A model generated the notes under the pieces. It was not told where the DNA came from. It saw nothing but the letters and a program-made list of their open reading frames with translations, and did no database searches. Below are positions 780 through 54,711 of a stretch of DNA of 64,000 nucleotides, piece after piece; the stretch's first letter is position 1, and each line of letters opens with the position of its first letter. Source of the stretch: a virus. The translations under genes were made by a program, and so were the position numbers. Location: IMG/VR virus record IMGVR_UViG_3300035180_002574, positions 96,001-160,000 of that record, one strand, 5' to 3'.

Positions 780-2501
780 TTAAGAACCGGCTACTTGAAT
801 TTGATCTTGATATAATTTATCCATTAAATTATAGAAATTACAAACATGTTCCATAAAAGAATTTTGCGCTTGCTTGATTGATGCTGGATAGGTGGATGGA
901 GCTACTAATAACGCTAACTCATCTTTTGTAAATCCCAAAGCATTTTGCATTCTTTCTTGAGCATCCGCATCTAAAAACCCGAGTAGATCACCTTTAGGCA
1001 TAATATACAATGCTCCAGTTATGGCAATTACATCACATAAACCTAAACCACTATACTCTCCCATTATCATTTCAACAATTTGAAGAGATCTTGCCGCCTT
1101 TTCCATAGCTTTAGATCTTTGAGAGGTCAAATAATCTAAATTTTGCTGCGCTAAATCGCCTAGAGCAGTGTTATTATTAGCCCCGAATGTTCCATTAGGT
1201 TTGGTATTTTTCCCAGTATTTAGAACATTAGGACTTCCTTTAGCTTTATTTCCCTCATTAGAATATTTATTCAAAAGATTTTTAACAACAGCCCTCATTA
1301 TTTCGGCGTCTAGTTCTGTAACCAACTCACTATGATTTTGATAAAAATCTTTTGATATAAATACATCGTGAGATTTAGAGCCACCTTCAGGACCAATGGT
1401 ACTTGGAATTGGAACCCAGTAATACAGCCCCTGCACACTTTTAATAACATCCTGAGCTTCTACTAATTTTTCAATCATGACTCTACTTAAATTCAAAAAG
1501 TATGAAAATTGATTCTTTTCTGACATGGTTAAATTATTAGACATATCCATCGCTCTTTGCAACGTATCCTCATCTTTAATAGCATCTAAGGTGGTTGCCA
1601 AATTAACTACGAATTCTTGACTGGACCCCGCATCGGAAGCAAAACTACCTGCAGTAAACCTATTTCTAATTATTGTTTCTAACAATGGCGGATTTAGGAT
1701 TTTTTCATCGGATAACTTAGCGTAGGTCTCATCCGGCACAAAAGGCACAACTATCCTATTTTCTGCTGGAGAAATAGAAAAATCTATTATTGGATCAACC
1801 ATAAATGGTCTAATATAATGCGCCTGCTTTTTCAATATAGCTATGGTTTTATCTCCCGGACCATAACCATCTACATTCGTATAATTTTCCAACCTAATAC
1901 TGTCGTTAGTTCCAACAATAGATTCTAAAACAATATTATATTGTTGGTCTTTTAATTCAAAGTCAAATGCGTCCGCGTTTTGCATATGATCATTAAATTT
2001 CCTAACATTGGTTCCAGACAAAAGTGACAACACTCCGGCATCAATGCTGTTTTGTAAAGAAAATATCCTCATTAGTTCATTAGTATATTTCTCTCTAGCA
2101 AGCGATATCGTGCGGAATTTATCTCCAACATTATTAGCAATGTTAAGTTTCTGCGCATTATTTATAGTTTTCTTTTGCGTTCTGCCAGTAACATCATGTC
2201 CAGGATTATAATAAGAAGTTTGATCCTCCGCTACCACCGGGAATCCAAGTAAACGAAAAAATGCATGGCAACGACTTTCTTGTACTAATAGTTCTGGCTT
2301 AACCGCAGAGTTAATAGTTAAATACTTATCATTATCAAATTTCACTAATTGAGAGATGCTAGAAATATTGACCTTGCTTTTAATCTTATCTATAGATGAA
2401 ATAAAGGCTTGATAGATATCATCTATATTAAAATCATTTACGTCAAAATTTTGAGCATCCAAATAATTAGATTGATTTAGGATATTGTTTATATCAGTCA
2501 T
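780..2501 (-). CDS. Hypothetical virion (baseplate-region) protein
   Basis: 573-aa ORF coupled (TAATG overlap) to the upstream gene inside the baseplate operon; one DGYG motif. Confidence 0.5.
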   Translation of the reverse strand: MTDINNILNQSNYLDAQNFDVNDFNIDDIYQAFISSIDKIKSKVNISSISQLVKFDNDKYLTINSAVKPELLVQESRCHAFFRLLGFPVVAEDQTSYYNPGHDVTGRTQKKTINNAQKLNIANNVGDKFRTISLAREKYTNELMRIFSLQNSIDAGVLSLLSGTNVRKFNDHMQNADAFDFELKDQQYNIVLESIVGTNDSIRLENYTNVDGYGPGDKTIAILKKQAHYIRPFMVDPIIDFSISPAENRIVVPFVPDETYAKLSDEKILNPPLLETIIRNRFTAGSFASDAGSSQEFVVNLATTLDAIKDEDTLQRAMDMSNNLTMSEKNQFSYFLNLSRVMIEKLVEAQDVIKSVQGLYYWVPIPSTIGPEGGSKSHDVFISKDFYQNHSELVTELDAEIMRAVVKNLLNKYSNEGNKAKGSPNVLNTGKNTKPNGTFGANNNTALGDLAQQNLDYLTSQRSKAMEKAARSLQIVEMIMGEYSGLGLCDVIAITGALYIMPKGDLLGFLDADAQERMQNALGFTKDELALLVAPSTYPASIKQAQNSFMEHVCNFYNLMDKLYQDQIQVAGS

Positions 2502-4660
2502 TATTCAGAACCTCCTGCATCTGCAAGATCAGATGCATCTCGACGAGGTGCTTGACCATCTGATTCATCACCGATTGCTCTATTAACGACATTGATTCCG
2601 TCAAGAGTATAGATAAACTTATAATCGAACGTTTGCAATGTATGTGTTGGAGGAGTAGTAATATCTGTAGGTAAAGTATTGGTACAAAAAATGTTATTAT
2701 CAAAAGAAATCATCAACTGACCAGATCCAGCTTTATCGCTAGTTAGATCCGCCGTAAAAAATTGATATCCATCATAGGAAAACTTAGATAAGGTTCCAAA
2801 TGTTGGATATCCAACAATTCTATTAGCTAAATTGGCAGCAACGCTTGACGGTAAATTTCTAGTTAGGTTTATTTGGTTCCTATCTCTAATATCAACACTA
2901 ATTTTTATTGGCAAGCTGGTGAATTGTATGGAAGGGTTTCCAGAAAATGTGCTATTACATGCATCGAATCCGATACCAATTAGACTTAATAAAGAATTGC
3001 TGGCATCATCTTTCAATTTATTTAGACAAGCATTTATTGTGGCTTGAAATGTTGCCAAGCCTGATACAGTTAAATCATTTCTGATAGCGGTCATTGCAGT
3101 ATTTAAACACTCAAGGGCTTGAGTTGGATTTGGAAATGCATCAGAATTCATGAAATGCAAAAGCTCTTGTAATTTAAGAGCGGCATCGCCGGCAAACATT
3201 TGATTAATGAATGTTCTATTTAACGCCAAATCTGGATGACATCCTAAAGTAACTAGATTTTTATTGATCAATACCTCAATACTTGGTTTGAAAGTATATT
3301 CAACATCATTAACAAATGCATATCCATCCGTTGGGTGAAGAGTCGGGGAATTATCAACATATGTTGGGAAATGCAAGAAATTCTCAATGCGCGCTTGGGT
3401 TCCTATTTGCGTAATACCGTCTGCGGCAAATCCTAGTAATGGAGTAACTCCATCATCCTCAAAACCAAATCCGCCTACTAAGTTTAAAGAACCGTTAGGC
3501 ATACTAACCGCACTATTATCATAACCGCTATAATAGGCATTTGGAGCGTGTGTAACAATACAATTATTGAAACGAATCCATCTTGTAGGACCTAATCTGC
3601 CATTCCACTGTGAAGGATTATACAACACCCTGATATCTACCAAATACGGGGCTTGTTTGGTTGGCGTAGAAGAATTATATGCCGAATCAGTTGGGAAAAA
3701 CACAGGTTTTGGATATGTTGTAATATCATATCCGTCAACTATGTTAATAAATCTCTGGGCTATATTTTGTGATGTATCAAAAATTTGCCAGCTTTCGTTT
3801 CTTACCGTAATAGTAAAGAAAGAGCTAAAAGCAGGGCTTTGTTGTACGGCATTGTAATATTGTAATGTTCCAGTGACTCTAGTATACGGCTGCTTAACTA
3901 TCTCTGGGCATACATCTGAGGTACTACAACCGTCCACGTTAGATGGATCAGAGCTATCACATGGGGGAATAGGAAAATTTAGCTTTAAAATATCTCTGAT
4001 TGCCTCAATCAATATATTGAAAAAAGAAAAAATAACAAATAGATTTTGAAACATACATAACATTGCACCAAGCTTTTTAGCTATTGCTAGCACAGAATCT
4101 TGGTTTGCAATTTGTATAGCTTTATTGAGTGCCAAAATGTTTCTAAGCATAGCTTTAACTAAAATAGCAACCTGTTCGATTATATATTCAACTAAAGCTA
4201 TCAATAGCATAAGTATAGAAATAATCATGACTATTATCGCAAACACCGGAAATAAAGCCAAGAATTGAGGCAAACAATTTCTAAATAATCTAGTCATTGC
4301 CCTAACCATTTTAAATGGATTAGGAATAGAACATAACACTTCTATAATACAAATGATAAGATTTAATGCTGGTAAGAAAAACTTATATAGCATTAAAAAT
4401 GGCATAAATTGGTCTAGTAATTTCATAATGCCATCGAACACATCTTTTCCAAAATTTGGATTTAATGCTGGTTTTAAAGTGCCGGGAGGAATAATAAATT
4501 GTAATTTATTTAAGATATCCAGCAAGTCTTCTGGAAAACCATCTGGGAACGGGCTAATATTTGGAACATTTGGAGAATAAGGAACTCCAAAACCAGGAAT
4601 GGGAGGTCCACTTGGCACAGTAGTCGTATCAATTGTTACATCGTTTGGTGAACAGGGCAT
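2501..4660 (-). CDS. Baseplate-associated protein with a long hydrophobic helical region and a C-terminal invasin/Big_1-like Ig domain
   Basis: 719 aa. Residues about 75-230 are strongly hydrophobic (FLALFPVFAIIVMIISILMLLIALVEYII). The C-terminal NSTFSGNPSIQ...IKISVDIRDRNQ...FTADLTSDKAGSGQLMISFDN resembles bacterial Ig group-1 repeats. Confidence 0.5.
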   Translation of the reverse strand: MPCSPNDVTIDTTTVPSGPPIPGFGVPYSPNVPNISPFPDGFPEDLLDILNKLQFIIPPGTLKPALNPNFGKDVFDGIMKLLDQFMPFLMLYKFFLPALNLIICIIEVLCSIPNPFKMVRAMTRLFRNCLPQFLALFPVFAIIVMIISILMLLIALVEYIIEQVAILVKAMLRNILALNKAIQIANQDSVLAIAKKLGAMLCMFQNLFVIFSFFNILIEAIRDILKLNFPIPPCDSSDPSNVDGCSTSDVCPEIVKQPYTRVTGTLQYYNAVQQSPAFSSFFTITVRNESWQIFDTSQNIAQRFINIVDGYDITTYPKPVFFPTDSAYNSSTPTKQAPYLVDIRVLYNPSQWNGRLGPTRWIRFNNCIVTHAPNAYYSGYDNSAVSMPNGSLNLVGGFGFEDDGVTPLLGFAADGITQIGTQARIENFLHFPTYVDNSPTLHPTDGYAFVNDVEYTFKPSIEVLINKNLVTLGCHPDLALNRTFINQMFAGDAALKLQELLHFMNSDAFPNPTQALECLNTAMTAIRNDLTVSGLATFQATINACLNKLKDDASNSLLSLIGIGFDACNSTFSGNPSIQFTSLPIKISVDIRDRNQINLTRNLPSSVAANLANRIVGYPTFGTLSKFSYDGYQFFTADLTSDKAGSGQLMISFDNNIFCTNTLPTDITTPPTHTLQTFDYKFIYTLDGINVVNRAIGDESDGQAPRRDASDLADAGGSE

Positions 4661-4681
4661 TATACTCTTTTATATATCAAC

Positions 4682-5044: not shown

Positions 5045-7060
5045 TTATATAGATCCGCCTCGTACTTTATTCACAAGCCTGTCTTGCAAGATTAAGCTTT
5101 CTGCATTAACACTTATATTTCCATCCGCAGAAAAAGATATGTTTTTATTTGAATGAAACGCCATATTTCCTGGAGAAATGATAGATAAATTACCGCTATC
5201 ATCAACTCTTATAAGAGTGGCAAATCCGCCCTTATTTAATATGCGAATATCTAGCGAAGCTCCAATTTGCCCATTATTTAAGCTAGAAAATCTACTATCT
5301 GTAGAAACTCCAAATCCACCTATTTGCCAAATCACATTACCATCCATAGATACTACTGCACTGTTATTGTTACGATCTCTTCCTATATTCGCAACAATAC
5401 CTCCAGCCGTATCTAACCATAAAGACTGCCTATCTATAGTGTTGGCTCCAATATTAAGCTCTAAAGAGCCATCAAGATTAATTGATCCGCTCCTACCGCC
5501 AGCATTAGCATTATCTCCAGAAACGTTTATTTTATTACTTACGACATTTGTAAGAATTGGAATATCTGCTGTTTGAAGTGGAAAAACAGGGAAACCCCAT
5601 TCGTTTGGATATGCTAAACGGTCTAATGATTGATGAGCGTAGCATGTATTCAAAATATCATGATACACTGTACCATGCTTGATATGAACTCCAGTTATTC
5701 TATCGATAGGAGCGCCATTAGCCCCATCATTAGATAAGACAATAGAACCTCTTTCAGTATTTGTAGTTACACCATCATTGATTAAATTAATAGATGGTGC
5801 GGCAAAAGAATCGTGAAGAATATCTAAATTATCTTTTCTAAAAATTAATTTGTTTGGATTATTGTTATCCTCGTCTCCAGTTGTTGAATAATTTTCATAC
5901 CTGGTTAATAAAGAAATGTTTCCTCGTTCAGAGGATGCCGGAACATTAATTTTAAATTGACCCTCTTTATCAATATCAAAAAAGAACCTACTTCTATTTC
6001 TGGCGTAATCGGAGTTTGAATTAATATCTGGAAGAGTTAATTGATTAGTTGTTGAGCTTATCAAGTCTTTTCTAGCATTTATTTCAAAATGAAATGCTAT
6101 ACTTTTTCTTTCTAATTCCTTAATAGCTAAAAAGGCACTCTTTTTATTATCTCCCTTAAGAGTTATCGTATCTTTACCAACTGGTAATGGGACGCGATTG
6201 ATATCTAAAATGTTTCCAAAGATATCAACAACCGTTCCCTTTACCGTCTCCATTAAATGGTTTGGGTAGGCAAGAGTAAGGCTTAATGTATCTGCTCTGC
6301 TTAATCTTCTATTTGGAAATGTAAAGTTTGTTTTGGTTGTATTACTAGTTCCATAAAACAAAGATTCGGTGTAATCATCATTAACTGCGGAGTTATTATT
6401 GAACTCATAAACTAATTCTCTGTTTTCAACAAACGCCGGATTCTTGGCGGGACCCGAAACTAAAGAGTTTGTTTTTACTGTCGGGTCTAGTCCAATAATA
6501 TCAAATTTAGAATCATAAATATCGCTTGTTAATTTGGCGTTTTGACTAAAATTAGTATTGGGTTTTAGGTCTCTTTTAATCGGACCCGTTACAGATCGCG
6601 TGCCTTGAGTAAAATGATTGGAACTATCAAAATTGCTAGTAATTAAATTACTGGACGCATTAATGTGGATGAAACTATCATCATCGCCAATGATGATATC
6701 ACTAGATTTTGATAATGTAATTTTTGCATAATCACCAGCCGATATTTTAATCGTGTCAGTATCTACATCAGGAACTGCCGCTGTATTTTCTGCTAAGAAA
6801 GAAACGAAATAATTACTTCCACCATTACCCTGCCCAATAATAACTGTCGATCCCAACGTAGGAAGAGAGCCCATAAACAATCCATTATAAAATAATGGAT
6901 ATGGAATTGGTACGGGGACTGGCTTCGGGTTTTGTCCTTTGATGGCAAGATTGGTGGTCAGTTGAACCAACATTACCCCTCTGGATTTATCGTATCCAAC
7001 GATAGATCCTCTTTTTAATAAACCTACTTTCTCTTGAAAATCTTGTTTTTTATGTTGCAT
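5045..7060 (-). CDS. Baseplate central spike (gpV/gp5/VgrG-like)
   Basis: 671 aa. N-terminal OB-fold-like segment (GSIVGYD...VPVPIP...GSLPTLGSTVIIG) and C-terminal beta-repeat tip (IRVDDSGNLSIISPGNMAFHSNKNISFSADGNISVNAESLIL); follows the hub gene. Confidence 0.7.
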   Translation of the reverse strand: MQHKKQDFQEKVGLLKRGSIVGYDKSRGVMLVQLTTNLAIKGQNPKPVPVPIPYPLFYNGLFMGSLPTLGSTVIIGQGNGGSNYFVSFLAENTAAVPDVDTDTIKISAGDYAKITLSKSSDIIIGDDDSFIHINASSNLITSNFDSSNHFTQGTRSVTGPIKRDLKPNTNFSQNAKLTSDIYDSKFDIIGLDPTVKTNSLVSGPAKNPAFVENRELVYEFNNNSAVNDDYTESLFYGTSNTTKTNFTFPNRRLSRADTLSLTLAYPNHLMETVKGTVVDIFGNILDINRVPLPVGKDTITLKGDNKKSAFLAIKELERKSIAFHFEINARKDLISSTTNQLTLPDINSNSDYARNRSRFFFDIDKEGQFKINVPASSERGNISLLTRYENYSTTGDEDNNNPNKLIFRKDNLDILHDSFAAPSINLINDGVTTNTERGSIVLSNDGANGAPIDRITGVHIKHGTVYHDILNTCYAHQSLDRLAYPNEWGFPVFPLQTADIPILTNVVSNKINVSGDNANAGGRSGSINLDGSLELNIGANTIDRQSLWLDTAGGIVANIGRDRNNNSAVVSMDGNVIWQIGGFGVSTDSRFSSLNNGQIGASLDIRILNKGGFATLIRVDDSGNLSIISPGNMAFHSNKNISFSADGNISVNAESLILQDRLVNKVRGGSI

Positions 7061-10000
7061 TGGATGATCCAGAGGTGGAGGAATTGGTGTTTGTAGGAGT
7101 TATTCCAACGTTAGTAAACGTTACCCAGCAATCTATTATGTATTTGAACAAACTTATTCTTAATTTATCATGCTCAACCTTTACATTACCAGAACTTCCA
7201 GAATTATCTTTTCCAGATGTTGGAGTTATTGGATTTCCACCATCGCTGGTGTTTGTTGGTGGTGATGCGCCGCCACCACTTACGCTGACTGAATTTATTT
7301 GATTTCTAGAGTAATCTATAGCCTTCTGTGACGGAGACCTAAATTCATTCTCAGAACTCATATTAACGAATGTTATTTGAACATACCCATCGCCAAGCGG
7401 AGGGGGATTATTTGCCTGTTTTGGATTATTATTTCCAACAAAAACTCCCCTAACAATATTTGCAAAATTTTTCAAATCAGGATCTGGCTGCCCCACGATA
7501 TCATCATAATATAATCTTAATTCTAACTTAGCTAAATAATTATTTCCTCGCGTATTGTTGCCATTGATAACGTTAGCTACAGTAAATAAGATATTATTAA
7601 TTACAGTACTATTCTCTTCAGATAGCGGAGTAGGTGGAACGCTATCTTGTCCTCCAACTGCACTGCCTGATTTGTTTGGATTTTCTGGTCTTACTAAAAC
7701 TCCCATACTAATATCGTCGGTTACTCCAGATTGTCTCTGTACTGTAAATGATGCAATGTCTTTGTTTTTATAAATTAGCTTACCAAATATGTCCAGAGTA
7801 GTAGGAATATATTCTCCTGGTGTATGACCATATGAAAGATCTAATTGAGTAGTAAAAGATCCCCCAGTTGCGGCATACGAAAAAGTATGAGTAACTTTAG
7901 TTACATAGAAAAGCATTCCTCTATCTTCGATGAAAACTACTTCTCCTGGCTGCATATATTCATTGCCAGAAATGGTAACGGTGCCTCTAAAAATGTTTTT
8001 TCTTGCCATGCTTAGTAACATAGTTGCAAACGGAGCGCACTGACTTACAGGATCTTTTAAGAAAGGAACGGTTATTGGAGCTGGGTGTTTTAAGCCATAA
8101 TTCCTCCACATATCGTAGTCTATGGCAACCGCAGAGGTCATGCCATTTCCAAAATTTGGAACATCTAGACCTTGAACATTATTGTCTGATTGTGAAGCAA
8201 AATCATTAATGTATCCATGAACTTCTACCATGCTATAATCTGGTGGGTTTTCCCAAATACTAATATCTCTTATCTGGCTTCTCTTAATAATATATCTACT
8301 GCCAGATCCCAGACCATAATCATCGTACCCTTCATCTTCAATCATATGTTCAAACACTTCCGGTATGTTTTTATTTCCAAACAAACCAGGAGCCATCAAT
8401 CTGTTAGCGACCTTTCCATTATCTTCATCTAGCGATTTGAATTCGTTTGCGTTTTTTAATGAAGAGTAAAGTAATTTTAATACTTTTTGTCTTTCTTTTA
8501 TCTTATCGGCAAGATCAGATGTTACCTTAAAATAATCTATTTTAGTATAGTTGGGCAATTCGGCGCCGGGCGCTGATTTTCCATTATTATATTCAAAATA
8601 TGTTCTTGGAATTCTTTGCCCAGATTTTGTTTGAATTCTAGATATTAAATCATCCACATATGAATTTGACTCAAAAGATTTAGTAGCTCCCAAAGAGCCA
8701 CCAACAGTAGATGTGTCCTTTAAAAACTTAACTAAACTATTATACCTATCCCCATTGGTATAAACAGCTTTTGTAGAAGATACTTGCTGTTTAAGTGCGT
8801 TAAAAGATTGATCTCTTTTACTGTCTTGCGTGTCTGGATTTGCCGATTTTAATAAGCTAGCTACATCTGATACAGATCCAGTATTTGCATCAGATAAGAA
8901 TAAGAAGGCGCTATCAGAGGTATTAGAAGAGGCTCCCGATCCGCTAATAAAACCTATGGCAGATTTATCGTCATTGAATCCTAATACAGCACAATCTAAC
9001 CTAATACCATCTTCTAGGATCTCTACTCTTTCTCTTAATGTTTTCAGTTGTCCATTAAATAAATCACTTAAGAATTCTGGAAATACTTGAATTCCCAAAG
9101 TTTGCTTCAAATACATCATACGATAAAACACAGAGCTTGGCATCCTATTATATTGTGGAGGACGTACCCTAATATGACCCTGCGTGTCTGCGAATACTTC
9201 AAGATTTAATAAATGAGCAACTTGCTGAATTCTTTGTTTTGTTGATGTAAACTCTTGGTTATAAAGGGCTGTTCCCCCAGCTATAGCTTTATCAAAAGCT
9301 AAAATATCATAATCTTTATCATAAAAATCATCAACAATAAATAAATTCTTGTCACTGTTAGCACGAACATCGTATGACATTCTTCTAGTTAATTGGTTTA
9401 TTTGACGTCTTAGATTCCTTCTAAACTCTGGGTCTGCCGATTGTTTAGATGCAGCGCTAGAATCTACAAATTGATTGAAATCAAATGAGGTATCATTACC
9501 AATATAACTTACATAATTGACATTTTTAGACTTGTTAATCACATCTTCAATTTGATTTTGTACGTCTTTAAGTAAAACGTCTTTTTGTGCCTTAATATCT
9601 GCCATAGTATCTGCAATGTTGACGCTAGGATCTAGAATATTAAGAACACCAAAAGTTTCTGCTTGAGAATTAAGATCTGATAATAATTTAAGATTTTCTT
9701 CAATCTTCTTATTAGCGGTAGTTATTTGATAGGTGTTATTTAATGCTTGAACATATGCTTGTTCATTTATTGACAAAGTCTTGAATGGAATAAAATTACC
9801 CCATAACATGTTGGATTTAGTTAGATCTTGTCTTAATGAAGTAATGAATGAGTGCGCCGGATTTTGTAATGTTTGCGGATCATTAGAGAAACCATGCAAC
9901 TCAACGGCAGCTTTCCAATAAGTAGCGAAGTTATAAGGCTGACCAGTTATCAATAAAGATAGAGTATTCATAATGTCTTGACCAGCAAGTGGCTCAATAT

Positions 10001-19769: not shown

Positions 19770-19907
19770 ATTGAAATCCTTGTCACTCAGTTTGGTAGAT
19801 TGTATCATTAAAATGTAGTAATATTCATATTCTTAGAATATTATTTACTGCATTTTATTGTCTGTTTGATTCTAAACTTTATATTTTAGTCACTCAAATC
19901 CGACTTC

Positions 19908-27350: not shown

Positions 27351-27398
27351 CTGAATCTCCTCTTCAGTTATGCAAAACAAGTAATATATGAGTAATTC

Positions 27399-37715: not shown

Positions 37716-37732
37716 ATGTTTCTCCAATGATT

Positions 37733-39955: not shown

Positions 39956-40786
39956 TTACACCACTTGACCATTAATGCCTTGATACCAAATGGCAAAGTT
40001 ACTAGCAGTGGCGTTAGCTGTACCAGTTGTGAGATTAGATACGACAAGTCCCCAATATAATGGTAATCTGTCCACTCCAAATGTTCTACAAAAACTAAAA
40101 GGACCCGCTATTTTTACGGTATTTGCGGTAGGAGTATTTACCTGTGCCAATAATGGTAAATTAGGAGGTGATGTTAAAGTCACCGCACTATCAGTTCCCG
40201 TAATACCTTCTGGATATGCAGTACCATCGCTAGCATAACCATATACGTTAAAATAGCTGGTAGCAACTACAGTAGAACCCGGACAAACTTTAACCCAAAA
40301 TAAAACATCTTCATATAGGGTTGTAGAATTATTTATTGCAGTACTAGCTCTTGACGCCGCAGCGCCTAAGCTCGCTAAAGTAATGGTTACGCCCTGATTA
40401 GCGGCGCCATATACTGGCTTGATTGTTCCACGCACGGTGGTGGCTACTAATTTAGAAAATGCAGTTACAGTTGTTCCAGAAAATGATGGAGTGGTGCCTC
40501 CCACTGTCCAAGATATTTTAGCAGTTGGAGAATTTACTAGCAACATTGTTACTACCTGCGTGCCCGCCGCATTGATAGTTGTGGAAGATTTTGAAATTCC
40601 AACTTGGGTTGATTCGTCTGCTGGATCAACCTCTGTTATTGTAAATACAATTGTTGGGGAGGTCCCTGTAGGAGCGTTAGCTATATGTATAACTATAGAT
40701 ACTTCTTGAGAGGCTCCGGCTCTAAAAACGTAGCTACCATTGGTAGTAACGGTGGCATTACTTAATACTGCATCTACGGTTCCCAT
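39956..40786 (-). CDS. Two-domain jelly-roll virion protein
   Basis: Start at ATG 40786 (TAATG overlap); Thr/Ser-rich beta-sandwich domains. Confidence 0.5.
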   Translation of the reverse strand: MGTVDAVLSNATVTTNGSYVFRAGASQEVSIVIHIANAPTGTSPTIVFTITEVDPADESTQVGISKSSTTINAAGTQVVTMLLVNSPTAKISWTVGGTTPSFSGTTVTAFSKLVATTVRGTIKPVYGAANQGVTITLASLGAAASRASTAINNSTTLYEDVLFWVKVCPGSTVVATSYFNVYGYASDGTAYPEGITGTDSAVTLTSPPNLPLLAQVNTPTANTVKIAGPFSFCRTFGVDRLPLYWGLVVSNLTTGTANATASNFAIWYQGINGQVV

Positions 40787-43700: not shown

Positions 43701-43965
43701 ATGCTAATCCAGGAACTGAAACTGGTACCGGAGTTCCAGATGGCGAACCTTGAATAGTAATAACACCACCAGCAGGTGTTCCGGCAGTGCCGGCACCCAC
43801 CACTAATTGCCTTCCTGTAGTATCTAGCGCAATTAATCTATTATTTGATCCATCTGATCCGGCAATCAGTAAAGCTCTATTTGATGCCGTTGTTGTTGAG
43901 GCATTGGAAATTGAAATTTCATAACCATCAGATGAATATAATATAGACGTCGGAGTATTTCCCAT
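40786..43965 (-). CDS. Long fibre protein with C-terminal lectin-like domains
   Basis: 1059 aa; N-terminus paralogous to 44005..46011, Gly/Thr shaft, C-terminal FKYQAG...REWGYFDGYNGLFFRL ConA-like domain. Confidence 0.65.
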   Translation of the reverse strand: MGNTPTSILYSSDGYEISISNASTTTASNRALLIAGSDGSNNRLIALDTTGRQLVVGAGTAGTPAGGVITIQGSPSGTPVPVSVPGLASLTSMFGSATPPAGSASGFSDGTNMQMGRVFDVDSGAGTQYVLGVNLRQSSSGGSVELGTGSNPLTINSTFASNVGSNLPTQAVLLGGSDSVNIQALRTSASAPGGTEYGLITRNIPSGTQTVSGSGNFTVIGTGTDNTANSTAKLPVLVAKANTSAPTWTDGNMAPLSVDGSGNLRITGSVSTSNPSVSTTGTAPPASATYIGGSVTTLPPTYTTGQMSALSLTTAGALRIDGTATYQPVAGAVYTSYQPDPSSTDTLVNNGIALDTSGRLETHGSITTDEGSFRDDFVGTTLTTTLAGTVTFTNNSNIVTGSGTNFTKSVLVGQFIKKSSDAETLYVLVSSVNSDTSLTLSSVYTGTTAATTAVVSNWKTFTGSGGSLTISNSNLVIASGTTSGSSTYIQRKADYLPFSCSAWVNISQNIANQTAFFGFIDTASTPANPIKQVMVQISGTNNNQVSFITSSLNASYATEITNVILPAGASLLNNNLFQIDITGAKATLSINGTLVAVNNLHIPGPYDQLNYVVGITNTGTPASNTTLYCDSVYFCNSDRLEVANSFIGDPLNTLSSIKDTNNRTIRATISQEIKVAGLYTLSDLTNKYELDTRQWDTLTATGGTAVHVPALSALRVSVTGTSGSTAAICTNTYFKYQAGYTQLIALSIINSDSGQANQVREWGYFDGYNGLFFRLSGTALNIVERSNTSGSVVDTIIPQNLWNVDKLDGTGLSSITLDVTKGNLYEIEVQWYGVGTVRYFIDNILVHESLHANTLTVPYTATAQLPVQFRIANSGASSAGSLTMICARVGAQGQIHEPFEWSFSAFTASDLLVGTTEIPIMTIRPKSLYNSITNRMVILPKVLTVSTEGYKMSWKLIYNATLTGASYTSASALSGVEYDVSATSYSGGELILRGFLNNDIDSDYVDLSPLFDMLGRKLRMPGFAGLGSNTSQDTLTLVATCESVGKTRARANITWVEVR

Positions 43966-44004: not shown

Positions 44005-46011
44005 TTATGTAAATTCTGTAATTTTAGCAGAGCCAGCAACGGAGGTCCAGATAGCATCTATCTGTCCAGTATAATTAACTGGAATATCCCAAGAACCCTG
44101 TCCAAAGATCTTTACAGTAAAACTTGTGCTGGAGGCAGTGGCTCCACACTTAACGAGAACGGTTCCATTATTAGAATCATTATAAATTGTTCCGCCCAAC
44201 CTGTTTGCATTAGAAGCTAGCAAAGTAGTATTTGTTCCAGTAGCTGCAACAGATGTTACTGTCGCAATGGAAGATTTAACTGGGGTTGCTGTAGTTGCTA
44301 ATGCGCCAGTTGCATCAGTCTTAAGACTTCTTGCATTGGTTCCATCAGAACCTGCAATTAATACTGGGTTTCCAGCAACGGCGGAACCATTTGCTGCTGC
44401 ACCAATAACAATTTGTCTTCCAGATGAATCTGTAAGTAATGCTTTTAAATTAGAGCCATCTGAACCACCGGACAAACTGGCAGAAGCTGGAGCGGCAGAT
44501 CCAGTAGTTCCAATAGATGCGTTAGTAAAGTTTCCTGTACCAGCGTTGGCTGTTACTGTCCAAGTGCCAGATTGAGTGGCTAGAATATTTGAATCGCTAG
44601 ATACCGTTACTCTTGGAATACCAGCACCAGAAGTTCCTGTACCAGTTACAACGTTACTTCCACCAAATTGTGTAACGTTTTGTGACCAAGGAGCACCACC
44701 TTGATTTGCTGTTACAGTTCCGCTTACCGGCTGAGTTACAGCGGAGCCGTCAACACGCAATGCACCGCCAGTAGTTAATGATAAATAATTGAAAGTATTA
44801 TTTGTATATGTTGGGGCTGAAGTTGTTACATAGCCGTCAATATTTGTTGCAATTGACGTATTTGGGCTAATAGAAACAACCAATGCTGGATCGGTGGCGG
44901 TTGCTGCTGTAGATGCAGGTTTAACAGCCGCGGTATTTCCTCCGGCGTTAATAGATGTTAACCAAGGAGTGCTATTAGCAGTATTTCCTGGCTGAACAGT
45001 CCATGTACCAGATTGAGTTGCTAAAATGTTTGAGTCATTGGCAACAGTAACTCTTGGGATTCCAACTCCAGATGCGCCAGTTCCAGTTACAACGTTATTT
45101 CCGCCAAACTGAGTGATATTTTGGGTCCAAGGAGCGCCACCCTGGTTAGAGGTGACTGTTCCTGAAACTGGAATTGGTGTGCCAGAAGCATTACCTTGAA
45201 CGGTTACTAATCCGGTAGAAGATCCAGATCCAGCAGCGGTTGTACCAACAATGGTAGCATTCAAGTTTGCGGCAGTTGCCTGAGAAACTTGAATTGGGGT
45301 CATGCTTGCAATACCCTGAACGGTTACAACTCCAGTTGCAGCAGATCCAGCAGAACCAGTACCAATAACATTGAAATTGCCAGTGCCTGCATTTGCTGTT
45401 ACCGTACCGGAAACTGGTTGAGTTACAGCTGATCCGTCAACCTTTAATGCTCCGCCAGCAGATACAGTTGCTGAATTTCCACCCTGATTAATTGTAAATA
45501 GCCATGGAGTGCTATTAGCAGTATTTCCAGGTTGAACTATCCACGTACCAGATTGAGTTGACGCAACGGTACCAGAAACAGTTTGGGTTCCTGAAGGGAT
45601 GTTTCTTGTAATTAGTCCAAATTCAGTTCCAGCAGGATTGGAGGTTGACCCTCTAAGAACTTGTAAGTTTGTACCATCAGAAACACCTATTTGAGTTGAA
45701 GATCCTGGTATAGCAGAACCGTTTACTCCGATAGAAGCGTTGTTTGCGGTAATAGAACCGGAAATTGGAATTGGAGTTCCAGATGCTGAACCTTGAATGG
45801 TTATTACACCACCAGCCGGGGATCCTGCGGTTCCAGCACCCACCATAACTTGTCTGCCAGAAGAATCTACTGATAAATATCTTGCGTTAGCGCCATCAGA
45901 ACCAGCTAAAATTAGCGCTGAGGTACTTGCTGGTATTGCAATACCATTTTTTACTGTTACTTCATAGCCGTCTGAGCTATAAAGAATTGCAACTGGCGAA
46001 TTAGAACCCAT
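44005..46011 (-). CDS. Repetitive fibre protein
   Basis: 668 aa of internally repeated modules (GSDGxNxxxLxxDxxG, VTQPVSGTVTAN, NVVTGTGxSGxGIPRVTV) and a short C-terminal beta domain. Confidence 0.7.
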   Translation of the reverse strand: MGSNSPVAILYSSDGYEVTVKNGIAIPASTSALILAGSDGANARYLSVDSSGRQVMVGAGTAGSPAGGVITIQGSASGTPIPISGSITANNASIGVNGSAIPGSSTQIGVSDGTNLQVLRGSTSNPAGTEFGLITRNIPSGTQTVSGTVASTQSGTWIVQPGNTANSTPWLFTINQGGNSATVSAGGALKVDGSAVTQPVSGTVTANAGTGNFNVIGTGSAGSAATGVVTVQGIASMTPIQVSQATAANLNATIVGTTAAGSGSSTGLVTVQGNASGTPIPVSGTVTSNQGGAPWTQNITQFGGNNVVTGTGASGVGIPRVTVANDSNILATQSGTWTVQPGNTANSTPWLTSINAGGNTAAVKPASTAATATDPALVVSISPNTSIATNIDGYVTTSAPTYTNNTFNYLSLTTGGALRVDGSAVTQPVSGTVTANQGGAPWSQNVTQFGGSNVVTGTGTSGAGIPRVTVSSDSNILATQSGTWTVTANAGTGNFTNASIGTTGSAAPASASLSGGSDGSNLKALLTDSSGRQIVIGAAANGSAVAGNPVLIAGSDGTNARSLKTDATGALATTATPVKSSIATVTSVAATGTNTTLLASNANRLGGTIYNDSNNGTVLVKCGATASSTSFTVKIFGQGSWDIPVNYTGQIDAIWTSVAGSAKITEFT
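44420..45700 (-). repeat. Diverged internal coding repeats of the fibre gene
   Basis: About 160-nt segments near 44560-44720 and 45000-45160 encode near-identical peptides with many synonymous differences; further shorter modules recur. Confidence 0.8.
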
Positions 46012-46022: not shown

Positions 46023-46547
46023 TTAAATAACAGTTCTTATCCTATTAATTTCGAAAACACCACTATAATTAATAGTATCCACTGCTGTAACTAAAATTGT
46101 TGTACCGTCTGTATCATATACCTTCCAAGTAATAGTAGATATAGTTTTATTTGGATTATATACGTAATTTTCTTCTAAAATCTTATATGTTTTGGTAGCA
46201 TCTGTATACCAAATTACAGATGTTGGAAATGGGCTAGCTGTAGGCGTAATCTCTCTATAAAGAGCAGGTCCAAATGATTCATAAGGACCACCGCCATCCG
46301 CCAAATGTATAAGTTGTCTTAAACCTTTATGAGTATTTACGGTTACTTCATCCGCGCCGCCAACTCCAACCCATGCAGGAGTTACTGCAGTTAACATCCA
46401 TAAACTGTTGTCATCTAATTGTCTAGCTAATTTACCAACATCGGATGATAAAAATCCGGTGGCACTAGTACGTTCCGAGGCATTATTATAAACAAACGCA
46501 TACGGAAGATGTATATTTTCTGGCTGTAAGTTTTTATGCAAACTCAT
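46023..46547 (-). CDS. Putative virion protein
   Basis: 174 aa; LHKNL..ENIHLPYAF..NNASERT....DVGKLARQLDDNSLWML...W fibre-associated pattern. Confidence 0.5.
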   Translation of the reverse strand: MSLHKNLQPENIHLPYAFVYNNASERTSATGFLSSDVGKLARQLDDNSLWMLTAVTPAWVGVGGADEVTVNTHKGLRQLIHLADGGGPYESFGPALYREITPTASPFPTSVIWYTDATKTYKILEENYVYNPNKTISTITWKVYDTDGTTILVTAVDTINYSGVFEINRIRTVI

Positions 46548-47176
46548 TAAACCGCCTTTTTCAATGCGTCACCATCATTGATATAAGTAATGCTTCCGTC
46601 TATATCTAAGATAAAACTATTAGCAGATAGTGTTAAAATGCCTCCAACTACTTTTGCATCAAGAAATCCATCAGTCAAAACATTTACCGTACCAACAGTG
46701 CCATAAGGAACGCCATCAATTTGCACACCTACACCAGATGGTAAGCTAACAATTTGCTTAATTGCATCTTCCACATTATTGGCACTAAGTCCAGTACCTC
46801 TTGGGTCAAATCCTACTTTTTTTGCACCCGCTGGATATCTGAATTGAACTGTTCCACCAGTAGAACTGGTTATCGTTTCATTAATAGAAAATGATGTGTC
46901 ACTCAAGACAGAATTGACGGTATAATATCCATCTGCAATTCCGCCGGGCAACGTTCCATAAATCCAAGCAATGTCATTTGGCTCGACAGGATGATCAGTG
47001 CTATATAAAATGCCATTACCATCCGAAGCCACATTAATATTGATTATATTTGGCGTAATTGTAGAAACAATAGATGTAGATAAGTAGATGCTATTATCCC
47101 CATATCCATCTGAGGCTAACTCATATGCATCTACTATATCTGTATCAAATATGTCTTGTTTTCTAATTGGCATCAA
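46547..47176 (-). CDS. Putative virion protein
   Basis: 209 aa; two DGY motifs, GYYTVNSVLSDTSF beta-barrel module, LSANNVEDAI fibre motif. Confidence 0.5.
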   Translation of the reverse strand: MMPIRKQDIFDTDIVDAYELASDGYGDNSIYLSTSIVSTITPNIININVASDGNGILYSTDHPVEPNDIAWIYGTLPGGIADGYYTVNSVLSDTSFSINETITSSTGGTVQFRYPAGAKKVGFDPRGTGLSANNVEDAIKQIVSLPSGVGVQIDGVPYGTVGTVNVLTDGFLDAKVVGGILTLSANSFILDIDGSITYINDGDALKKAV

Positions 47177-47896: not shown

Positions 47897-49405
47897 TTAA
47901 GTCTTAATAAAGTAATTTATGTGGTCGTTTTTGTTTATCATTTGATAGAATGTTACTGAAGTCGTGCTTGTTTCTGCATAATCATTTCCAGCAGCCACTG
48001 GTCCTGGATCTCTTAATAATCCACGAGTAAATATCCACAAATTCTGACCATTTCCAGTACCATCTAATGTGTATGAAATTCCACCAGGCAATGTGTGGGC
48101 GGTATTTGCCGAAATATGTCCAGACAATCTTTCAATCGTACGGGTTACGTGAGAAGAGGTAATTGCGTTAGATAGTGCCTGTAAAGATGCCGTTATTGTC
48201 TGTCCACTTGTTAAAATAGATCCAGTATAAGTTCTATTTCCAATTTGGGAATTCAAAGTATTTAAAGCATCAACAACGGTTGGTGTAGCATTAGGCAAAT
48301 TATAGAATGGGAAATATGTTGTTGTATTTGTTAATAAACCATTAAGATTGGTAGTTGTACTAACCGTACCTAAAGTTTCTAAAATATTATTAACTTGACC
48401 ACTCAAAGCTGCATCCGTCAAAACACCAAGTGCCGGAACAGTTCTAAAAGCGTTCTCATCTAATTGGTCTAGTCTTTCATTATAACCATACAATAAATTA
48501 ATTGTTGTTGGCTGTCCAGCTTCCCAAGTATATGCTGTGTGTGTTCCGGTATAATCTGCCCAGAATGGAGATGAATAGAAATGAACTTCTACAGAGTTTG
48601 GAGAAGTAGATAATCCCGCATAGGTAACACCAAAAATTCTTTCACCGGCATGAGGTCCCGTAAGTACGGTTAATTCACTTCCACTGGAATATCCATCTGT
48701 AATATGAACATAACATGAAGTCCAGTCCCCACTAAATGGGGCTGCATCGAAACAAGGAACTCCAGTATTATCAACAGCATCAGCATGTTTTAAATTTCCA
48801 ACAGATGATAAAGTTACCAAAGTATTGGTTGCAGCTACAGAAACATTAAAAAATGCTCTGTTAACGTTATAAGCAATGGCGTCTGTTGTTTTTCCTGCAA
48901 TATTTGTTAAATTGGCGCTAACATTTGTACCAACTGCGGTTGGTCTTTGATATGTTGGAACAGCGTCATACCAATTTGTGGTACCTTTAATTCCTTTACG
49001 ATCTGTTCTGGTATAATTGATGTCATCTTCTAAAGAATATGGCTGTCTTTCTGTCCATACAATGGCGCCGTTGTTGGCATCAGATGGTACGGCATTAACA
49101 TTGTAAATATCAACAGAGGTTGATGAGTTAAAATTAGCAATTAAAAATGTTCCATTGTTTGCAGAAGATGCTGCGCCAGAAATAGTTAACATATTAGTTA
49201 CGCTAGCTGCAGTCATTCCTGTTAGACCAGTTATTGTTGCAATTCCCGAAGAAACCGTGGTAATACTAGCAGCAGAGCCAGTTTGTCCGGCTATTGCCGC
49301 ACCAAATCCAGCAGCTTCATCAGATAATGTTAATGTTTGAGATTGAGTGTATGAACCAGCAATATCAAGAGCTTGGTTTAGTGCATTTTGTCTAGAAAAA
49401 CCCAT
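47897..49405 (-). CDS. Virion structural protein
   Basis: 502 aa Thr-rich; NNGTFLI beta-barrel module, VDALNTLN helical fibre motif, C-terminal GNDYAETSTTSVTF module. Confidence 0.55.
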   Translation of the reverse strand: MGFSRQNALNQALDIAGSYTQSQTLTLSDEAAGFGAAIAGQTGSAASITTVSSGIATITGLTGMTAASVTNMLTISGAASSANNGTFLIANFNSSTSVDIYNVNAVPSDANNGAIVWTERQPYSLEDDINYTRTDRKGIKGTTNWYDAVPTYQRPTAVGTNVSANLTNIAGKTTDAIAYNVNRAFFNVSVAATNTLVTLSSVGNLKHADAVDNTGVPCFDAAPFSGDWTSCYVHITDGYSSGSELTVLTGPHAGERIFGVTYAGLSTSPNSVEVHFYSSPFWADYTGTHTAYTWEAGQPTTINLLYGYNERLDQLDENAFRTVPALGVLTDAALSGQVNNILETLGTVSTTTNLNGLLTNTTTYFPFYNLPNATPTVVDALNTLNSQIGNRTYTGSILTSGQTITASLQALSNAITSSHVTRTIERLSGHISANTAHTLPGGISYTLDGTGNGQNLWIFTRGLLRDPGPVAAGNDYAETSTTSVTFYQMINKNDHINYFIKT

Positions 49406-50975: not shown

Positions 50976-50981
50976 GCGTGC

Positions 50982-52202
50982 ATGTCGTCTATTCACATAT
51001 CAAACGAAAAAATTAACCATTATGCAATTGATATTTGTTCCATTCTGCAAAAACACGGATACCAAGCCTATATTGTGGGAGGATGTGTTCGAGATTTGAT
51101 CTTAGGCAAGCAACCTAAAGATTGGGACATTTGTACCGATGCAAAACCAGAAAAAGTGATGGAATTATTTCCTAAACATTATCCCACTGGTCTTAAACAT
51201 GGCACTATAACTGTCGCCATGGCAGAAGGCGTTGAAAACAACTTTGAAGTTACTACTTTTAGAGTAGAGGGTAAATATACTGATGGTAGAAGACCAGAAG
51301 AAGTTTCATTTGTCAGTAATGTTATTGAAGATTTAGCCAGAAGAGATCTAACCATTAACGCAATGGCATATGATCCTCTAGCTAAGATAATTCTAGATCC
51401 ATTTTACGGTCAGCAAGATATAAAATGGGGATTTATTCAAGCGGTAGGTAATGCCAATGATAGATTCCAAGAAGATGGGCTAAGAATTATGCGCGCAGCG
51501 AGGTTTGCTGCTCGATTTGAATACATAATCGAATCAAAAACATTCGAAGCCATGTGCAATAACCTACCAACATTGGCAAAAGTCTCTGTTGAACGTATTA
51601 AAGATGAACTTTGTAAAACTTTAATGACCAACAATCCATACTTAGGAATAAAATATCTACAAGATTGTGGCGCTTTACAACAAATCTGTCCAGAAATTAC
51701 TCTTACTGAAGCTTTAGAGAAGTGTAAGGGCGGCTTAGAAACTAAAATTGCTTGTCTTTTCACTCATACAACCTTTACCATCGCTGAACGGGCAATGATA
51801 TCCCTTAAATTTTCCAATAATGAAATCAAAAAAGTTAAATTATTATTGCAACTTTTTGAATGGACAAGTGCCGACTGGAGCACCACAAAAGTTTATCGTA
51901 AATTTATGGCGTTTCTTAAGAATCAGGCACAGGAAGACTGGCAAGACATCTTAAGAGAATTTATACATTTGTCTGAGGCGTTTGGAAGGGACGTTAAAAC
52001 GACCCTTGAGGCATGCAAAAACGAAATTGTCTGGGCTCGCAAAGAAATGGCAATCAATGGCGATGATTTGATTGAACTTGGAATTAAACCAGGACCGGAA
52101 TTGAAAAAACTTTTGGATAGATGTTATGAAGAAATTCTAGAGCATCCTGAAAAGAACACTCTAGAACATCTTTCAACAATTGTTAAGACAATCTCTTTAT
52201 AA
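50982..52202 (+). CDS. cca: Class II tRNA nucleotidyltransferase (CCA-adding enzyme), no HD domain
   Basis: 406 aa; YIVGGCVRD...KDWDICT (DxD), EVTTFR, EDLARRDLTINAMA, RFQEDGLRIMRAARFAARF, SVERIKDEL, C-terminal INGDDLIELGIKPGP. Confidence 0.93.
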   Translation: MSSIHISNEKINHYAIDICSILQKHGYQAYIVGGCVRDLILGKQPKDWDICTDAKPEKVMELFPKHYPTGLKHGTITVAMAEGVENNFEVTTFRVEGKYTDGRRPEEVSFVSNVIEDLARRDLTINAMAYDPLAKIILDPFYGQQDIKWGFIQAVGNANDRFQEDGLRIMRAARFAARFEYIIESKTFEAMCNNLPTLAKVSVERIKDELCKTLMTNNPYLGIKYLQDCGALQQICPEITLTEALEKCKGGLETKIACLFTHTTFTIAERAMISLKFSNNEIKKVKLLLQLFEWTSADWSTTKVYRKFMAFLKNQAQEDWQDILREFIHLSEAFGRDVKTTLEACKNEIVWARKEMAINGDDLIELGIKPGPELKKLLDRCYEEILEHPEKNTLEHLSTIVKTISL

Positions 52203-52904: not shown

Positions 52905-53918
52905 TCAGGCGCCTACGACGACTGATTTCCTTCCGGCTGCGACACCACGAGGATTGACGATTGCCAAACCAATGATTTCGCTTACAACCCAGCCTAATTT
53001 AAGCTGTTTTGGCTCATCGGCAGGAAGCACTTCAATGTCCTGACGGATTGGCATAACTCCAACGAATTCTGGGTCGGCTGCGCCATATATCGTTCCAGGT
53101 GGAACGATCTTGGATACCATAATATCAGTACCCCAAATATGAGCATAAAGACCAGTTTGAAGAACTTCACGCATGGTGACTGGATCGAAATCACCGCCAC
53201 CAGTTCCTTGACCACCACCTGAACCCCACTTAAGGATATCAGTAAATTCATTGATGTTCATGAAGTACTTGGTTGTAACTAAGTCCCAACGATCGATTTG
53301 TTGCTTGATTTCAACAAGGTCTCTCTTCAAAAGACCGGCGTCAGCAATGTCAGTCAAGGTGTTTTCGACTGATGCGGCAGCGTCTAATGCTGCGAAGATG
53401 TTAGCATCTTCCTGAGCCATAATTTCTTGACGAGCCTTCTGAACAGCTCTGTCGATTACGTTGAATCTACGACGCTTGACTTCGGCGATTCTAACAGTTG
53501 GGTTTGCAAAGATTTCAAACTCTGGAACAACAACACGGTCACCGAAAACACGGGACTCTGGTCCTGTACCGTTGCTAGAAATAACAACTGCTGCTACGTC
53601 GATATCGCGATCGTAGGTTGGCATTGCGCCCTGTGGAAGAGGGTCTACAACAAGTGCTCTACGTGCAATTCCGTGGTAATCTAAGTTTCTACGGATTGGG
53701 TTTGCCATTGCCTGAGCAAGAGCAATCTTTCCATCCTGAGTCATAATTGCGCGAGAAATTAATTCATCACGCTTGTCGTCACTTAATTGAGGCTGTCCTG
53801 CAAGACCAATATTTGATGGCGCATTTTCTTCCAAAATTGATGCATATTTAACAAGAGTTGTTAACGCATCCTTCAAAGATGAGGCGTTCATTTCGCCTTT
53901 GCTATTGAACATATTCAT
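52905..53918 (-). CDS. Major capsid protein (HK97-like fold)
   Basis: 337 aa; AQAMANPIRRNLDY..IARRALVVDPLPQGA.P.YD, E-loop VVVPEFEI.ANP.VRI, QEDANIF, G..WGTDIMVSKIVPPGTIY, GWVVSEIIGLAIVNP; strong AGGAG SD and terminator. Confidence 0.88.
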   Translation of the reverse strand: MNMFNSKGEMNASSLKDALTTLVKYASILEENAPSNIGLAGQPQLSDDKRDELISRAIMTQDGKIALAQAMANPIRRNLDYHGIARRALVVDPLPQGAMPTYDRDIDVAAVVISSNGTGPESRVFGDRVVVPEFEIFANPTVRIAEVKRRRFNVIDRAVQKARQEIMAQEDANIFAALDAAASVENTLTDIADAGLLKRDLVEIKQQIDRWDLVTTKYFMNINEFTDILKWGSGGGQGTGGGDFDPVTMREVLQTGLYAHIWGTDIMVSKIVPPGTIYGAADPEFVGVMPIRQDIEVLPADEPKQLKLGWVVSEIIGLAIVNPRGVAAGRKSVVVGA

Positions 53919-53977: not shown

Positions 53978-54037
53978 GAGCGAGGGATTCCCGATTAGGG
54001 GATTGAGACATCCAGTCTCCTCCTGTCCCTCGGCAGG
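53978..54037 (-). other. GC-rich structured leader (three-way junction) upstream of the capsid gene
   Basis: CGAGGGA/TCCCTCG closes the GAGAC-TGGAT-GTCTC and TCCC-CTAATC-GGGA hairpins, in an otherwise AT-rich spacer. Confidence 0.55.
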
Positions 54038-54060
54038 ATTTTTAATTCAGATTACCCTAA

Positions 54061-54711
54061 TTAGGCAGCTGGTGGATTGAAGTAGAAGGTTGCGAAGCCT
54101 AATACTGCAGTTCCAAGAGCAGATGCTAACTTGCTTGGGGTGTTTACCAAAGAACCGTTGGTCTCGAATTCAACGAAACGTCCAACTACTGGAGCTGAAC
54201 CAACAGCGTTTACTGAACCAACTGGAGTCAAAAGACCCGTTGCGGTATAGGTAAGTGCTGCGCCTGTGTCAAGAGTTGCATTGGTTGGAACCAATCCGGT
54301 TGCTGCAGTGTCAACTGCATCAAGTGATACAGCGTACATACCTGGTTTTTCCCAAAGAGTTACTTTGCCTGAACCAGTTGCGGTGTGAGGTCCAAGAACT
54401 GCGCCGCCAGTTGATACCTGACCAACAGTTCCACCGACTACTGTACCGAAAAGAGTACCGTACCCGGAAATACCATCATCAGCTAACATCAATGGACGAG
54501 AGCTGGAGGTAAGAGTTCTAGTAGCTACGACTCTCTTGTTTGGATTTACATATCCATCAAATACGTCGAAAGCTGCTTTATCAGTTGCTGCACTTGCAAC
54601 AATAGACTTAAAGGTAAGTAATTCTCCACCCTTAAGTGTCAAAACTTCTGTATCAAGACCATCAAATTGACCTAATGGTTGAGTACCTGGTTGTAATAGT
54701 TTTAAAGCCAT
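54061..54711 (-). CDS. Capsid decoration / cement protein
   Basis: 216 aa directly upstream of the MCP; beta-tulip-like pattern (PLMLADD...SGKVTLW...LTYTATGLLT...VGRFVE). Confidence 0.65.
   Translation of the reverse strand: MALKLLQPGTQPLGQFDGLDTEVLTLKGGELLTFKSIVASAATDKAAFDVFDGYVNPNKRVVATRTLTSSSRPLMLADDGISGYGTLFGTVVGGTVGQVSTGGAVLGPHTATGSGKVTLWEKPGMYAVSLDAVDTAATGLVPTNATLDTGAALTYTATGLLTPVGSVNAVGSAPVVGRFVEFETNGSLVNTPSKLASALGTAVLGFATFYFNPPAA

Follow-up and report, generated by a model that had tools for sequence, protein, structure and literature searches.

Counts and distribution of the DGY tripeptide

Why should a single tripeptide, Asp-Gly-Tyr (DGY), recur throughout the outer structural proteins of one virus? 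The question was raised by an earlier note on a stretch of 64,000 nucleotides (nt), hereafter the window, which comprises bases 96,001-160,000 of the single 181,177-bp virus record IMGVR_UViG_3300035180_002574. That note had counted 28 DGY (nine as DGYG) in 15 genes and proposed that they form a shared sequon placed convergently on outer proteins. It had also suggested that the excess be compared with shuffled sequences, between structural and non-structural genes, with unrelated phage proteins and among homologues, and that glycosyltransferase genes be sought in the rest of the genome. We called the open reading frames (ORFs) of the window and chose a non-overlapping set of 57 genes, which together encode 20,541 residues and almost all lie on the minus strand. 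DGY occurs in frame 29 times, in 16 of these 57 ORFs; every per-gene count of the note was reproduced, and one DGY, at amino acid (aa) 1568 of the gene at 7050-12092, had been overlooked. As described below, the excess is real and strong and DGY is likely a surface tag, while the chemistry of the tag is put forward as a proposal.

The composition of the individual proteins predicts 3.4 DGY in the window, close to the four or so estimated before, and the dipeptide frequencies (DG x GY / G) predict 6.6. Tyr follows 29 of the 140 DG (21%; the earlier note had put the share at roughly a quarter), and Asp precedes 29 of the 76 GY (38%). DGY is by far the most over-represented tripeptide in the window (Poisson P = 8e-18), the runner-up having a P of ~1e-4. 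Shuffling of each protein (n = 2000) gave a mean of 3.4 DGY and a maximum of 12, and when every DG was preserved the mean rose to 5.3 and the maximum to 17, so that the observed 29 lies above every shuffle of either kind.

The excess is confined to one part of the record. The whole record contains 42 DGY, and 38 of these fall between 80.5 and 150.7 kb of the genome, a 70-kb block of tail, neck and fibre genes in which 3.9 are expected. The proteins outside this block have four, against 4.5 expected. Three of the four outlying DGY are in two fibre-like proteins, each of which has a short domain in common with at least one protein of the block.

The signal could in principle have arisen by chance, from amino-acid composition or from a word in the DNA, and the one point in favour of this is the AT-rich codon bias, which makes GATGG(A/T)TAT the commonest spelling of DGY. 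When the corresponding DNA word (GAYGGNTAY) was searched over the whole record, frame 0 of genes yielded 42 occurrences, the remaining sense frames two to four and each antisense frame one; the tripeptide is spelled by nine different codon combinations. Confinement to frame 0 and the variety of spellings indicate selection on the peptide and not on DNA or RNA, and a nucleic acid word was ruled out on the same counts (42 in frame 0 versus 1-4 in each of the other five frames). Taken with the Poisson P of ~8e-18, the shuffle maxima of 12 and 17 versus 29 and the replication of the excess in 27 related loci (see below), this makes chance, composition or a DNA word a hardly credible explanation.

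The earlier note had found no DGY in the major capsid protein, tube, sheath, tape measure, hub or spike. DGY is indeed absent from the capsid protein (52905-53918, phrog_2522) and from the sheath (17004-19808), whereas family searches could not confirm the identity of the tube, tape measure, hub and spike. Most of the proteins that carry DGY matched no Pfam or PHROG family. The DGY-bearing genes of the window, in window coordinates, are the following:

780-2501, minus strand, 573-aa gene, DGY(G) at aa 211 (nt 1863-1871); no Pfam or PHROG match
2501-4660, minus strand, 719-aa gene, DGY at aa 309, 445 and 630
7050-12092, minus strand, 1680-aa gene, DGY at aa 1568 (nt 7383-7391), the one absent from the earlier count
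19908-20717, minus strand, 269-aa gene, DGYG at aa 128; DGY retained in 18 of 22 orthologues
20721-26819, minus strand, 2032-aa giant protein, DGY at aa 274, 450 and 615, retained in 24/25, 21/25 and 17/25 orthologues; 2-7 DGY per orthologue
27399-28127, minus strand, 242-aa gene, DGY at aa 138 and 150; weak Ig-like (Big_3_5) match
29516-31090, minus strand, 524-aa neck-like protein, DGY at aa 35, 181, 222 and 280; N-terminal FN3 domain, stopper/tail-terminator-like fold, C-terminal HxH boxes
32323-33222, minus strand, 299-aa gene, DGY at aa 111; retained in 22 of 22 orthologue matches
33225-33563, minus strand, 112-aa protein with an Ig V-set-like domain, DGYG at aa 20 in the BC (CDR1-like) loop
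36451-36852, minus strand, 133-aa gene, tandem DGY at aa 45 and 51 (LDGYTPTDGYG)
37733-39265, minus strand, 510-aa tail-fibre-like protein, DGY at aa 248 and 395; phrog_1980, phrog_17834 domain
40786-43965, minus strand, 1059 aa, virion structural protein (phrog_1645, E 5.5e-74) with DGY at aa 13 and 766; shares a paralogous N-terminus with 44005-46011
44005-46011, minus strand, 668-aa fibre paralogue, DGY at aa 392 and at aa 14, the latter in alignment with aa 13 of 40786-43965
46547-47176, minus strand, 209-aa gene, DGY at aa 23 (DGYG) and 82
47897-49405, minus strand, 502-aa gene, DGY at aa 237
54061-54711, minus strand, 216-aa gene next to the capsid gene on its upstream side, with a single DGY (aa 52) that could be chance

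DGY is an exact word without shared flanks

We compared DGY with its near neighbours in sequence. Within the block, words that differ from DGY by one residue are not enriched: NGY is found once against 4.8 expected, EGY three times against 2.2, DGF eight against 4.6, DGW once against 0.8 and DAY three against 3.2. The permuted words YGD (3 observed, 3.9 expected), GDY (5 and 3.9) and DYG (2 and 3.9) are not enriched either. Among the relatives described below NGY is also scarce (24 observed, 37 expected). The NG dipeptide is at expectation in these proteins and is not depleted, which rules out avoidance of deamidation-prone Asn-Gly as the cause of the preference for Asp over Asn. A generic Asx-Gly turn followed by an aromatic anchor was also rejected, since Asn and Asp, or Tyr, Phe and Trp, are not interchangeable (NGY 1/4.8, DGF 8/4.6, DGW 1/0.8).

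Two further known contexts were discarded. A calcium loop of the EF-hand or DxDxDG type is ruled out because none of the 29 sites has the context [DN]x[DN]xDG; the earlier note had held that such a context is usually lacking. The excess is also not a general trait of beta-rich phage structural proteins, as the 26 structural proteins of T4, taken here as the unrelated comparison, contain only five DGY against 2.4 expected, and none of these is in the long fibres.

A shared domain as the source of the tripeptide was ruled out in two ways. The 20 aa on each side of DGY are no more similar among DGY sites (mean pair score -34.9) than among other DG windows or random windows (-34.0 and -34.6), and an all-against-all BLASTP found a single paralogous pair with aligned DGY, the N-termini of 40786-43965 and 44005-46011. 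These results also bear on the idea that DGY is the last trace of an ancient repeat or module that spread among fibre genes by duplication and shuffling. The paralogous pair just mentioned speaks for this idea, and a second point in its favour comes from Bacillus phage G, the closest cultured capsid relative (54.6% identity), in which gp420-431 contain 14 DGY against 2.2 expected, mostly in two recurring modules. The giant fibre proteins gp424-gp427 of this phage (26002-43435 of the phage G locus compared) have at least six copies of N.R..DGYWYVRG and several of LVDGY.VK.GG, repeat families that appear to be undescribed. Phage G therefore resembles the present virus in having a local DGY excess in giant fibre genes, but its excess derives mostly from paralogous modules with conserved flanks, and no homologue of the GT4 glycosyltransferase was found in it. 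In the virus studied here, flank similarity is that of control windows, the bearers have unrelated folds (FN3, Ig V-like, stopper-like), and new DGY appear at many columns within a single orthologous family. Descent from an ancient module is thus very unlikely.

Conservation and turnover among relatives

The neck-like protein (29516-31090) has more than 760 metagenomic homologues, and we used the best 120, which are 64-79% identical to it and lie on contigs of up to ~490 kb; in the cultured phage collection it had no relative. Relatives judged complete by CheckV are ~447-452 kb long, one of them with direct terminal repeats, so that the 181,177-bp record may be a fragment, roughly 40%, of a much larger genome.

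The excess is replicated in 27 related viral loci, which together contain 365 DGY against 27 expected, and many individual sites are retained. In the 120 orthologues of the neck-like protein, DGY222 is present in 119, DGY181 in 103 and DGY280 in 90. For the N-terminal DGY, position 20 is used in 88 sequences, whereas nine, this phage among them, have it at position 35. No other tripeptide occupies as many columns in the alignment of these orthologues as DGY, with 24 (17 for the runner-up), and 13 of the 24 lie within a variable insert that is present in 28 sequences only. Tandems such as DGYDGY and DGYTDGY occur among the relatives, and 37 of 202 DGY spacings are of 12 residues or fewer, compared with a null mean of 13.5, a difference inflated by orthologue redundancy. 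When the sites of orthologues are compared, Asp proves the most conserved of the three residues. The main substitute for Tyr is Gln and not another aromatic residue, and in place of Gly there is usually Val, Ala or Thr.

The division between groups of orthologues that carry DGY and groups that never do is maintained across the relatives. No DGY occurs in the 16-18 orthologues of 26871-27380 and 31214-31732, two small conserved proteins of the tail block (169 and 172 aa, identity unconfirmed). Outside the clade, the distant capsid relatives LR745208 and PaBG have no DGY excess, and Tunturi_5 and Rctr197k have a weak one only.

Structural context of DGY

Five of the 42 DGY sites, in two proteins, were modelled. 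The AlphaFold model of the neck-like protein has a mean predicted local distance difference test score (pLDDT) of 70.6. Its N-terminal FN3 domain was matched by phmmer to an FN3 domain of neogenin, and its body was matched by Foldseek to neck, stopper and tail-terminator proteins of phages 812, Pam3, T4 and T1. In this model DGY35 lies in the coil before strand 37-46, which corresponds to the BC loop of the FN3 domain, and DGY222 also precedes a strand. The 112-aa protein (33225-33563) was modelled with a pLDDT of 88 as a sandwich like the V-set of immunoglobulins (Ig), and its DGY20 is in the long loop 20-32 that joins strands B and C, the counterpart of the first complementarity-determining region (CDR1). 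A sequence search against solved structures returned nothing useful for three of the bearers.

The orthologues of the 112-aa protein show how freely the tripeptide can change place. The same BC loop contains DGYG.R in some, DSDGYR.DGY in others and NNNN in one, which implies that DGY is not needed for the structure of that fold. Some orthologues have an additional DGY in a six-residue insert, and one phage carries a DGY in the FG loop, which lies at this tip of the domain as well; most carry one or two DGY, and some lack it. In both modelled domains the predicted position of DGY is in a loop, and within one of these loops it slides among orthologues; the earlier note had often seen it in N-terminal arms or short inserted loops.

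The neck-like protein has two other features that are unusual in a neck or stopper-type protein. One is a conserved cluster of four Cys (C324, C326, C338 and C341, aa 324-341), and the other is a set of three invariant HxH boxes at the C-terminus (aa 476-519; H476/H478, H502/H504 and H517/H519), which recall the metal-binding His boxes of T4 fibres.

Two explanations that rely on the loops themselves can be weighed with these data. According to the first, DGY is an intrinsic micro-motif, in which Asp-Gly makes a tight turn and Tyr anchors the next strand, a loop closure reused by the lineage with no external reader. The weak alternating hydrophobic pattern on either side of DGY, the position of DGY35 and DGY222 ahead of strands, the high conservation of many sites, of Asp most of all, and the mild, twofold excess in T4 structural proteins are in line with it. 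NG, however, is at least the equal of DG in forming tight turns; NGY is nonetheless at 0.2-0.65 of expectation while NG itself is undepleted, and neither DGF nor DGW is enriched. Moreover, one loop accepts NNNN or a tag displaced by two residues, DGYDGY tandems fit a single turn geometry poorly, and the restriction to one clade and one set of proteins would be left unexplained. We consider an intrinsic motif of this kind unlikely.

According to the second, the loops are working binding sites, which either dock a repeated phage partner or make many weak contacts with a host polysaccharide or a metal ion, with Tyr stacking, Asp forming hydrogen bonds and Gly providing flexibility. The BC and FG loops that carry DGY in Ig-like and FN3 domains are CDR-like and usually form the binding tips of such domains, the tandem copies of DGY suggest avidity, and two invariant sites are in conserved, poorly modelled segments, as is often the case at interfaces. 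Stickiness, on the other hand, needs no fixed order of residues, and YGD, GDY and DYG are at expectation; a docking site should stay fixed in a symmetric virion, whereas DGY slides, duplicates and arises in variable inserts; and no candidate partner was found. Direct binding by the loops is, in our opinion, somewhat unlikely.

A conserved glycosyltransferase cassette next to the DGY-richest genes

Glycosyltransferase genes, for which the earlier note had proposed a search, are present in the record and conserved beside the genes richest in DGY. The Pfam matches at 74.3-80.5 kb of the genome comprise an RmlB-like 4,6-dehydratase, two GT2 glycosyltransferases and one of GT4/GT1. The GT4-like gene starts 50 bp downstream of a 1308-aa gene with four DGY and shares its strand; the interval between the two contains no called terminator-like or promoter-like site. 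Another GT2 gene adjoins the outlying giant fibre genes. For one GT2 the best match among solved structures was GalT1 of an adhesin glycosylation pathway, with an E of only 1.5e-6, and a search of the ESM Atlas with the 347-aa protein of the cassette yielded no function.

The order of these genes is retained in relatives of 180-480 kb, where a giant DGY protein and a 1300-aa DGY protein are followed by GT4, GT2, Fpg/Nei, an unknown protein, GT2, dehydratase and tubulin. In the present record the TubZ-like tubulin is at 72897-74261 of the genome, after the cassette, an order shared with the relatives. GT4 is present in eight of the nine relatives' records searched, the exception being a fragment estimated to be 45% complete. 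The distant capsid relatives phage G, Rctr197k, LR745208, Tunturi_5 and PaBG have neither a GT4 homologue nor a DGY excess comparable to that of the clade.

Together, these observations lead us to favour, tentatively and with somewhat less than even confidence, a reading in which DGY is a tag read in trans, most plausibly by the products of this cassette. DGY would then be a free-standing, three-residue tag that neck, baseplate and fibre proteins display on exposed loops throughout a clade of huge phages, and it would be retained by selection exerted through a single trans-acting reader with a defined pocket. The likeliest reader would be a phage-encoded protein glycosylation system, composed of the GT4-like, the two GT2 and the RmlB-like 4,6-dehydratase proteins, whose genes are directly downstream of the DGY-richest fibre genes and on the same strand. 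The acceptor would probably be the Tyr hydroxyl, or else Asp, and the sugar would be added in the cytoplasm while the protein folds.

Several of the results described above argue for such a reader. A word that is exact and specific in its order points to one reader with a defined pocket, rather than to general stickiness or turn propensity, and, being independent of its flanks and offering both a Tyr-OH and an Asp-COOH, it has features of an acceptor. Sites that slide, duplicate and are born in inserts resemble glycosylation sequons, whereas docking sites in a symmetric particle are expected to stay put. The original idea of a sequon placed convergently on outer proteins is partly supported, by the enrichment at the peptide level, the lack of relatedness among bearers in BLASTP and in the flank comparison, the limitation to the neck, baseplate and fibre block, the conservation throughout the clade and the predicted loop position in the two modelled domains. 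The most specific version, in which DGY is the sequon of a cytoplasmic, phage-encoded tyrosine glycosylation on dozens of neck, baseplate and fibre loops that gives the whole clade a glycan coat, is possible but doubtful.

Other results weigh against a tag read by the cassette. The capsid and the sheath are likewise exposed, and yet they have few or no DGY. Many DGY sites are near-invariant (119 of 120 orthologues in one case), which is compatible with interface or structural roles, and DGY222 and DGY280 are in strongly conserved segments modelled with low confidence, where near-invariant sites would fit a role at an interface. Where Gly varies, the D and the Y persist (DVY, DAY, DTY). In addition, the cassette could instead modify DNA or host envelope glycans: an Fpg/Nei-type DNA glycosylase gene lies in the middle of it (genome 77396-78238), which leaves room for a function in DNA modification. 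Finally, what ties DGY to the glycosyltransferases is adjacency and one clade-level co-occurrence, and, since the latter opposes one clade to its outgroups, it amounts to a single evolutionary event and not to independent support.

Comparison with known systems

Literature searches for a DGY motif in phages found none, and the multi-omics paper on phage G mentions neither virion glycosylation nor a DGY motif, so that the earlier statement that no system of this kind has been described holds for the literature searched.

Among known short motifs, the sequons of protein glycosylation are the nearest in kind. N-x-S/T is one of them, and another is D-(S/T)-(A/I/L/V/M/T), which directs O-glycosylation in Bacteroidota and acts outside the cytoplasm. 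Like DGY, they are very short linear motifs with several copies per protein and with sites that are gained and lost. They lie in exposed loops, and for DGY a loop position is predicted in the two modelled domains. To our knowledge, known sequons are not tenfold over-represented and use Asn, Ser or Thr, whereas DGY is enriched tenfold and offers Tyr or Asp. A different parallel is provided by the HxH His boxes of T4-type fibres, which bind metal and keep fixed places along the axis of the trimer. They too are a minimal motif that recurs across different fibre proteins of one virion, but DGY moves within loops and occurs in folds other than those of fibres.

Glycosylation of phage particles has a precedent in mycobacteriophages. 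As summarized in PMC12619734, their virions are glycosylated by phage-encoded glycosyltransferases, with glycans at the C-termini of capsid and tail tube subunits (Freeman et al. 2023, Cell Host Microbe; PMC10527164). There, as here, glycosyltransferase genes of the phage neighbour its structural genes, and the notion that virion proteins are modified in the cytoplasm is already established. No acceptor motif is given in that summary, while the candidate acceptor here is an exact tripeptide; and the targets there are capsid and tail tube, while here the capsid has no DGY and the neck, baseplate and fibre proteins carry it, a comparison that is one of motif and not of glycans.

Tyrosine as an acceptor has a precedent in bacterial S-layer proteins. 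In Paenibacillus alvei SpaA and in Thermoanaerobacter, Glc or Gal is O-linked to Tyr, and the rhamnose-rich S-layer glycans are made by GT2 and GT4 enzymes together with the Rml pathway (PMC2943079). Transfer to Tyr is carried out there by a membrane oligosaccharyltransferase during secretion, and no consensus motif is mentioned in that article (PMC2943079). This coupling to secretion sets the S-layer system apart from phages, the virions of which assemble in the cytoplasm.

Without a dedicated reader it is very difficult to account for an order-exact tripeptide that is enriched tenfold, conserved in hundreds of uncultured huge phages and repeatedly reinvented in their surface loops. If that reader is a glycosyltransferase, DGY would be a new sequon, possibly the first for tyrosine, and its use the first motif-directed, virion-wide modification in phages; huge phages would then sugar-coat their tails, which would bear on host recognition, evasion of defences and particle stability. 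Should the loops themselves do the binding, virions would carry a new, minimal code for adhesion. Whichever applies, DGY is a simple sequence marker of outer virion proteins, in a group in which nearly all structural genes lack a family annotation, and the 112-aa Ig-like protein and the six-gene cassette provide a testable handle.

Other genes of the structural block

The adjacent fibre genes 40786-43965 and 44005-46011 share a paralogous N-terminal region of ~230 aa (43% identity), and both proteins start ...ILYSSDGYE. Their C-terminal parts differ, resembling swapped receptor-binding modules. Two enzyme-like or lectin-like proteins are encoded among the structural genes of the window:

36855-37727, patatin-like phospholipase gene (Pfam PF01734, E 6e-29) within the structural block, flanked by DGY bearers; the product may be a virion-borne lipase
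39275-39952, protein with a concanavalin A-like lectin/glucanase domain (Laminin_G_3, E 2e-13) among the fibre genes, with no DGY

Between the structural genes and the capsid gene, on the opposite strand, lies a gene for a CCA-adding tRNA nucleotidyltransferase (50982-52202, plus strand; phrog_2244, E 1e-68).

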